64,000 bases of DNA from Escherichia coli (lineage in GTDB: Bacteria; Pseudomonadota; Gammaproteobacteria; Enterobacterales; Enterobacteriaceae). How positions within the stretch are numbered: the stretch's first letter is position 1; each line of letters opens with the position of its first letter. Below the pieces are notes generated by a model. It did not search any database and had not been told where the DNA came from. It saw only the letters and a list, made by a program, of their open reading frames with translations. The stretch lies in NCBI RefSeq assembly GCF_024298765.1, contig NZ_CP101210.1. One strand, written 5' to 3'. Below, one piece after another: positions 52,966 through 53,399 of the stretch. The position numbers and the translations under genes are program-made.

Positions 52966-53399
52966 TTCAATTATCTCCGTTATTGCTCCGTTGCTGCAAG
53001 CAGTACTCAGTGCATTTTAAAACCCGCCATGCTATAGCCTCAATCGAATAAAATCGATCGAATCGATCGATGATATCGATCGTCATTAACCAGAAATTTT
53101 TATCGTATTCAGTCAGCACAGACACAACAAATGCATGCCATGCAGGCAGCCATGCCCCGTCGCGACAGATGGTAGCAGTGGGCTGGCGAAGAGCAGAATT
53201 AATAAAATTTGTTTATTCTGTCAGGAGATAAGGTGTCACCTGTTCATGAACACAATTAAGGAAGAGACATACATGAGCTGACTGGCAGTCCAGAGTGCAT
53301 GCGGTTACAAGCCGGAAAGGTGAACCGGTATAACCAGTGAGCAGAGTTTGTGAAGGGGGGATATAAAAAAGCCCACTGCATGGCTGCGGGTAAAGAGTC

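Follow-up and report, generated by a model that had tools for sequence, protein, structure and literature searches.

In Escherichia coli (assembly GCF_024298765.1), a 64,000-nucleotide stretch of contig NZ_CP101210.1, analysed as a whole and called here the window, carries a compact array of three identical palindromic octamers, ATCGATCG, upstream of a gene that encodes an outer membrane protein (OMP) of the Hra/Hek/Tia family. Every octamer includes one Dam site (GATC), a feature that the original prediction left unremarked and that is the key to the most likely nature of the array. The block formed by the octamers is strongly conserved across diverged alleles of the gene and resembles several proven operators at which DNA methylation controls a LysR-type regulator. 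It is therefore predicted, with moderate confidence, to be a methylation-sensitive LysR-type operator that would give heritable ON/OFF expression of the adhesin. Within this class, OxyR acting as at agn43 is tentatively favoured, HdfR acting as at Salmonella std is the alternative, and the small remaining probability goes to some other LysR-type protein.

The octamers begin at 53053, 53062 and 53075, i.e., 88–117 bp upstream of the start codon of the OMP gene, which agrees with the original description. The plus strand reads aaaATCGATCGaATCGATCGatgatATCGATCGtca from 53050 to 53085, and an extra overlapping palindromic register of ATCGATCG begins at 53064. Outside the array, the octamer has only one further copy in the window (at 1660), and none of 500 dinucleotide shuffles yielded three copies within 30 bp or less. 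The three GATCs (53056, 53065 and 53078) are separated by 9 and 13 bp. They are the only ones between 50468 and 54401, a region of about 3.9 kb, with no other GATC inside 1.3 kb of the array.

The downstream protein, labelled simply "outer membrane protein" in RefSeq, shares 97% identity with the allele of strain 83972 and 60–63% with proteins from genes annotated Tia. It is a member of the Hra/Hek/Tia family of heat-resistant agglutinins and invasins, which has been described previously (PMC5539235). A single promoter-like site (TTGAGG/TAAAAT, on the gene strand) is found between 52900 and 53450; this predicted promoter would place the transcription start near 53007, and the negative positions given below are counted from there. 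The elements of the locus are the following:

52225–52965, minus strand: Hra/Hek-family OMP adhesin gene (ATG start, 246 aa, 8-strand; Pfam PF13505 OMP_b-brl, E=6e-22)
52978–52973, minus strand: ribosome-binding site (RBS) GGAGAT of the OMP gene
53014–53043, minus strand: predicted sigma-70 promoter, with -35 TTGAGG at 53043–53038, an 18-nt spacer and -10 TAAAAT at 53019–53014
53053–53082: octamer array, ATCGATCG-a-ATCGATCG-atgat-ATCGATCG on the plus strand and CGATCGAT-ATCAT-CGATCGAT-T-CGATCGAT on the gene strand
53056–53059: proximal Dam site, about -52, 9 bp from the middle site; this unit is gained or lost in four-GATC and two-GATC alleles
53065–53068: middle Dam site, about -61, 13 bp from the distal site; TATC in the WP8-type allele
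53078–53081: distal Dam site, about -74 from the predicted start; each base kept in 36 of 37 other unique alleles
53065–53081: signature GATCGATGATATCGATC, two GATCs 13 bp apart around a LysR/OxyR-type half-site, centre about -66
53066–53080: main half-site ATCGATGATATCGAT, an ATC-N9-GAT palindrome with 8/10 matches to the OxyR half-site ATAGnTnnnAnCTAT
53053–53067: second, overlapping palindromic half-site ATCGATCGAATCGAT, 8/10, centre about -53
53034–53048: promoter-proximal OxyR-like half-site ATAGCCTCAATCGAA, 7/10, overlapping the -35 hexamer, 32 bp from the half-site at 53066 (start to start)

The upstream region of the gene is mosaic, as in most of the 1401 genomes that match the OMP gene, similarity ends about 20 bp ahead of the ATG. 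The upstream region of the window type matches 186 genomes; in 55 of these, identity reaches at least 99% over the full 335 bp and the length is unchanged. Alignments of diverged alleles, including genes annotated tia, reveal the block ahead of otherwise unlike promoters, and 1682 of 5426 complete E. coli genomes, including that of the type strain ATCC 11775, possess a block-bearing promoter of the tia type. Compared with 33 other allele families, the window shows 87% identity over the block, versus 53% over the 31 nt upstream, 50% over the stretch from the block to the -10 element and 31% over the 5' untranslated region (UTR); the -10 element alone is comparable (97%). The nearly invariant columns of the block are GATCGAT.T...(T/C)CGATCGATTCGATCG, and variation inside it is limited to four columns.

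So that loci were not selected by the block itself, metagenomes were scanned with the conserved RBS-ATG pattern. Among the 120 stretches recovered, 66 encode a homolog; the block is found at the same distance from the -10 element in about 54 of these 66, and an unrelated upstream region of the hek type in about 10. The 38 unique alleles mostly carry three GATCs spaced by 13 and 9 bp (24 alleles); seven carry four (13+9+9), five carry two, one carries a single GATC and one carries none. The number of units differs between allele families in discrete 9-bp steps, giving two, three or four GATCs. Members of the four-GATC family, with their 9-bp insertion, come from metagenome loci L024, L039, L056, L077, L085, L086 and L114, and one 9-bp unit is lost, leaving two GATCs, in metagenome locus L111.

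Taken as a whole, this pattern across families and genomes identifies the block as a phylogenetic footprint instead of a drifting repeat of low complexity. The original prediction had offered two explanations, a binding array for a regulator or a low-complexity duplication. The first is supported, since the block is the best-conserved upstream part of diverged alleles (87% against flanks of about 50%), lies at about -52 to -74 of the sole promoter-like site and matches known LysR-type operators. The second finds no support, as copy number is constant in the 55 near-identical genomes, changes being confined to the 9-bp steps between allele families.

The resemblance to OxyR operators concerns both the half-sites and their position relative to the GATCs. 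The pair of half-sites within 53034–53080, spaced by 32 bp, has 15 of 20 matches to the OxyR consensus and is the single best of the window (next best 13), and the 22-bp register at 53053–53089 has 14. By the same scoring, proven OxyR sites range from 14 to 18 of 20 (oxyS/oxyR 16, katG 14, ahpC 16, agn43 16, gtr 18 and mom 14). The locus therefore has ATAGnTnnnAnCTAT-like half-sites at both a 22-bp and a 32-bp spacing, the latter being the one described for OxyR in its reduced form at gtr and opvAB (PMC2909390, PMC4856963). As in Dam/OxyR-controlled operators, at least two GATCs lie inside or at the edges of the putative OxyR site: those at 53065 and 53078 flank the main half-site and that at 53056 is within 53034–53080. 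The signature GATCGnTnnnAnCGATC (GATCG-T---A-CGATC) has a single instance in the window, and the pattern GATCGNTNNNANCGATC, stricter than a plain GATC triple, also occurs once, at 53065. Scans for CRP, IHF, Fis and Lrp consensus sequences gave nothing notable inside the array, and the Rfam search gave one sub-threshold chance match only.

The closest OxyR/Dam counterpart is the operator of agn43 (flu). Its 47 bp align without gap at 53034 with 34 identities, whereas none of the other positions, about 128,000 in all, exceeds 27. Both arrays possess three GATCs, an identical core ATCGATCG-N5-ATCGATCG, a 13-bp GATC pair flanking an OxyR half-site (the agn43 instance of the signature is GATCGTTTATATCGATC), a second half-site that starts with ATAG 32 bp away and one half-site over a core promoter element. 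Furthermore, both genes encode an adhesin, that of agn43 being self-associating. However, the GATC spacing is 19+13 in agn43 versus 13+9 here, and the agn43 operator covers the -10 element and the transcription start, downstream of the promoter, whereas the predicted operator of the OMP gene is upstream and extends over the -35 element. The orientation relative to the gene is also opposite, and the third GATC is located in the spacer between the half-sites instead of at the edge of one.

Other OxyR/Dam operators share part of this organization. At gtr and opvAB, 13-bp GATC pairs flank OxyR half-sites of the form ATCGnTnnnAnCGAT, and the half-sites, spaced by 32 bp, lie upstream of the -35 element and overlap it; half-sites A and C of P22 gtr carry the signature as GATCGGTAACAACGATC and GATCGCTTGTATCGATC (PMC2909390). 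These systems differ from the array in having four GATCs (two separated pairs in gtr, a spread over 133 bp in opvAB) and alternative upstream and downstream OxyR sites, whereas the window allele shows a single compact cluster and just one good full site; their targets are genes that modify lipopolysaccharide, versus an OMP gene here. The four-GATC allele family is nearer to gtr, as it would have three half-sites, spaced by 31 and 32 bp, the last of which covers the -10 element. Upstream of its promoter, mom of phage Mu also has three GATCs, a 13-bp pair with one mismatch to the signature (GATCGGTAATACAGATC, A for the final C), an ATAG-type half-site 31 bp away and a consensus score of 14/20. 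It differs by its 18+13 spacing and by being a phage late gene, for which phase variation was not shown (PMC2909390).

The way such an operator could work may be viewed as follows. The conserved block would act in cis, its three Dam sites being included in two overlapping LysR-type ATC-N9-GAT palindromes centred near -66 and -53. Just after replication, a LysR-type regulator would bind the unmethylated or hemimethylated sites and shield the GATCs from Dam; if Dam methylated them first, binding of the regulator would be blocked. Either state would propagate itself, so that a clonal population would split into heritably ON and OFF cells (epigenetic phase variation). If the regulator is OxyR, a tetramer would occupy 53066–53080 and 53034–53048, the second half-site lying over the -35 element, and the bound state would be OFF and the methylated state ON. 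We infer binding, methylation sensitivity and direction of regulation from the likeness to operators for which they are proven.

The main competitor of OxyR belongs to the same class. HdfR, a LysR-type protein encoded by E. coli, activates the Salmonella std operon from an upstream activating sequence (UAS), and methylation blocks its binding to a pair of GATCs spaced by 9 bp (PMC6735912, PMC2328253). If the array were such a UAS, HdfR would bind the unmethylated 9-bp-spaced pair (53053–53069) and activate a weak promoter, the bound state being ON and the methylated state OFF, and Dam together with SeqA would keep most cells OFF. We regard this as possible, although unlikely. The std UAS holds three GATCs at -242, -229 and -220, that is 13 then 9 bp towards the gene (PMC6735912), and the array shows the same 13+9 order from distal to proximal, within about 25–26 bp and in the same orientation to the gene. 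The half-site at 53053–53067 corresponds to the GATC-2/GATC-3 pair that HdfR requires at std. The GATC contexts are also alike (ac-GATC, tc-GATC-g and tc-GATC), the std motif being printed as acGATCa-N6-tcGATCgt-atcGATCta (PMC2328253). A std 33-mer, ATTACGATCATAATCATCGATCGTATCGATCTA, matches the minus strand of the window at 53054–53086 at 26 of 33 positions (next best 21), but this 33-mer was reconstructed from the printed motif and the reverse complement of a primer used in electrophoretic mobility shift assays (PMC2328253) and was not read from a genome. In both cases, the gene encodes a surface adhesin on horizontally acquired DNA. A LysR-type activator usually binds a site near -66 and a second one near -35, which is the geometry of the palindrome centred near -66 and of the second site near -35; the -35 element is weak, being TTGAGG with an 18-nt spacer in the window and TTTACC in tia-type alleles.

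By contrast, the std UAS is located at -220 to -242 and depends on a loop formed by the operon-encoded StdE and StdF (PMC6735912), whereas the array is at about -52 to -74 and the OMP gene is flanked by a phosphoethanolamine transferase gene and remnants of insertion sequences (IS), with neither StdE/StdF genes nor another regulator gene. The distal GATC-1 is dispensable for HdfR at std, yet it is nearly invariant in the Hra/Hek/Tia block, as is the 13-bp pair to which it belongs. Neither a GATC nor any block-like sequence was found upstream of E. coli hdfR and flhDC, a negative with no weight by itself, and no published HdfR motif was found. In a scan of contigs from named species with GATCGN7CGATCGN3CGATCG, the matches listed included no Enterobacteriaceae and were dominated by high-GC genomes.

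A Dam-dependent switch under a LysR-type regulator, whichever protein is involved, has to be reconciled with several observations that weigh against it. A GATC triple within 26 bp is not rare at the scale of the window, as it arose in 148 of 500 shuffles of the 64 kb. Two other tight clusters, at 9356–9379 (three GATCs in 24 bp) and 16031–16072 (four in about 41 bp), are observed within long GC-rich open reading frames (ORFs) of the core genome. On account of the shuffles and of these two clusters in coding DNA (9356 and 16043), GATC clustering was rejected as evidence by itself. The half-sites also vary: the proximal one has only 5–6 matches out of 10 in the commonest tia-type alleles, which lowers the pair to 12–14 of 20, and at position 10 of the main half-site, the alleles are evenly divided between A and G. 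The std site itself resembles agn43 in its GATC contexts, as its authors remarked, and yet it is bound by HdfR and shows the opposite dam phenotype (PMC2328253, PMC6735912); sequence likeness consequently supports the Dam-sensitive LysR-type class more firmly than the identity of the protein or the sign of regulation.

Some natural alleles weigh in the same direction. In the 720632-type allele (L005, 1201–1362; 74 genomes in that identity band), mutations affect all three GATCs and a deletion removes 4 nt. The WP8-type allele (WP8-S18-CRE-02; L004, 1201–1541) retains two GATCs, the middle one being changed to TATC, although the same change creates the consensus CTAT and raises the half-site to 9/10. 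In strain 83972 (L007, 2367–2585, compared with 52966–53180 of the window), the coding allele is 97% identical and the -35/-10 core is kept, but the sequence upstream of the -35 element is unrelated and has no GATC at all; this hek type is common in uropathogenic E. coli and in ST131. Alleles that have lost GATCs or the whole block imply that a switch is dispensable. Finally, no binding, methylome or expression data for the locus were found in the literature, and no link of Hra, Hek, Tia or Hes to Dam, OxyR, HdfR or phase variation, in full-text searches that covered few subscription journals and so are not proof of absence.

The array could instead be the operator of another protein with no epigenetic role: a Fur box (possibly combined with Dam), a nucleation site for H-NS on horizontally acquired AT-rich DNA, or a GATC cluster bound by SeqA that couples expression to replication. 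We judge such a role unlikely. Joint control by Fur and Dam is reportedly found at the sci1 type VI secretion promoter of enteroaggregative E. coli. The Fur-box-like sequence of the window is the following:

53072–53090, minus strand: Fur-box-like GTTAATGACGATCGATATC, 14/19, overlapping the distal GATC

No position of the window scores higher than this match, and 5 out of about 128,000 reach the same value, but a score of 13–14 is restricted to window-type alleles; other families, in which the GATC block is conserved, reach 10–13 of 19. For H-NS, the gene lies on an AT-rich island and TCGATCGATT agrees with the motif TCGATAAATT at 8 of 10 positions, a degree of match that the window reaches 90 times. 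At agn43, opvAB and std, SeqA plays an ancillary part (PMC4856963, PMC6735912). None of these possibilities accounts for the conservation of the ATC-N9-GAT palindromes or for the exact 13-bp spacing of the GATC pair that is common to four proven methylation-sensitive LysR-type operators.

The array was also compared with the switch of pap, which likewise confers Dam-dependent ON/OFF expression on an adhesin carried by the same kind of pathogenicity island. However, pap requires a PapI-like co-regulator and two GATC boxes that are separated by 102 bp and lie in Lrp sites (PMC2909390), versus one cluster here. A pap-type Dam/Lrp/PapI switch was excluded: there is no other GATC in 50468–54401 and the best Lrp consensus match is outside the array. 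In ATCC 11775 (L256, 2301–4417), the block-bearing tia-type gene is located directly downstream of papG-II and is followed by a truncated phosphoethanolamine transferase gene; in that case, two adhesin loci related to Dam would be neighbours.

Two remaining explanations fare worse. A non-functional low-complexity duplication of the 9-bp unit, inherited with the promoter, is very unlikely. It would account for alleles with two, three or four units in 9-bp steps and for those devoid of any GATC or of the whole block, but conservation of the block far exceeds that of its flanks in families whose 5' UTRs are only 31% identical, variation inside it is confined to four columns, and near-identical alleles show no change in copy number. 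A contingency locus driven by slipped-strand mispairing of simple sequence repeats was excluded: no length change is seen in the 55 genomes at 99% identity or more over 335 bp, and units differ only between old allele families. Most improbable of all is an RNA hairpin serving as an intrinsic terminator or insulator against read-through from upstream minus-strand genes, since the 8-bp stem, 3-nt loop and following TTTATTCGAT found by a terminator scan (minus strand, 53071–53053), in a minus-strand RNA that folds into two hairpins (-19.3 kcal/mol), come with a folding z-score of -1.86 (10 of 200 shuffles fold as well), a T-run that is absent from most allele families (GAAAACATTCC, GAAATTATTC or GGTTGTAACC in others, where the GATC palindromes are kept) and upstream genes that differ between loci, yet the block always accompanies the OMP promoter.

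If the block is indeed a methylation-sensitive LysR-type operator, a broader and quite unlikely proposal can be added, namely that std, agn43 and the Hra/Hek/Tia genes have in common a portable epigenetic promoter cassette, by descent or by convergence. Gain and loss of the 9-bp unit TCGATCGAT (two, three or four GATCs) would reset the half-site distance from about 22 to about 31 bp and thereby change the form of the bound LysR-type tetramer and the switching bias; a slow change in unit number would thus tune a fast epigenetic switch, and alleles without GATC or without block would be locked variants.

The proteins Hra1, Hek, Hes and Tia act as adhesins, invasins and autoagglutinins in several pathogenic groups of E. 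coli (uropathogenic, neonatal-meningitis, avian, enteroaggregative, enterotoxigenic and Shiga-toxin-producing). The functional studies consulted used foreign promoters, and the native regulation of these proteins is not described in the searchable literature. Dam-dependent switching by LysR-type regulators is a known kind of system; its prediction for Hra/Hek/Tia genes appears to be new, although an earlier report is possible. Such a switch would be unsurprising in principle, but it would be widespread, medically relevant and directly testable. Expression of the adhesin would be heterogeneous and heritable within a clone, which would affect adhesion and aggregation assays (through the choice of colony), colonization models and the choice of vaccine antigens. 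The very short list of methylation switches of the OxyR or HdfR type would also gain a target that about one third of complete E. coli genomes possess. The natural alleles that would be locked, with no GATC or no block, would provide ready-made controls, and the signature GATCG-T---A-CGATC could be used to find further switches in genomes.

A 53-codon ORF (53070–53231, plus strand) has its ATG inside the array and reads away from the OMP gene; it is probably spurious, its region being unconserved between allele families. The window matches the chromosome of E. coli strain 135 (NZ_CP080260) at 100% identity, and the avian pathogenic strain BEN2908 carries the same allele. The OMP locus belongs to an island inserted at the tRNA-Phe gene pheU (tRNA at 44933–45008), with the order tRNA-Phe, tyrosine integrase, MkoC, phosphoethanolamine transferase, Hra/Hek-type OMP, IS and pseudogene debris, and PhoX. 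The integrase gene lies at about 45206–46468 (a position mapped from L001, 5107–6369). Just inside the island after it, 46920–50435 (plus strand) encodes a 1171-aa SF1 helicase with a C-terminal PLD nuclease domain that matches the full-length model of MkoC from the type II Mokosh anti-phage system (E=0, 1694 bits). At 53300–54290, ahead of the OMP promoter, lie a fragment of the IS3 family and a frameshifted remnant of an ABC-transporter permease gene, and an intact phoX (54292–56271, minus strand) lies beyond this patchwork.

Downstream of the OMP gene, the phosphoethanolamine transferase gene (50544–52043) is syntenic with it in most of the loci fetched. A strong terminator-like hairpin on the minus strand separates the two (52123–52147, ACCCTGCAG...CTGCAGGGT), and a separate promoter-like site precedes the transferase gene (52108–52081, minus strand). 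Co-transcription of both genes, which would have made a switch of envelope modification like those of gtr and opvAB, is therefore unlikely, and they are probably separate transcription units.

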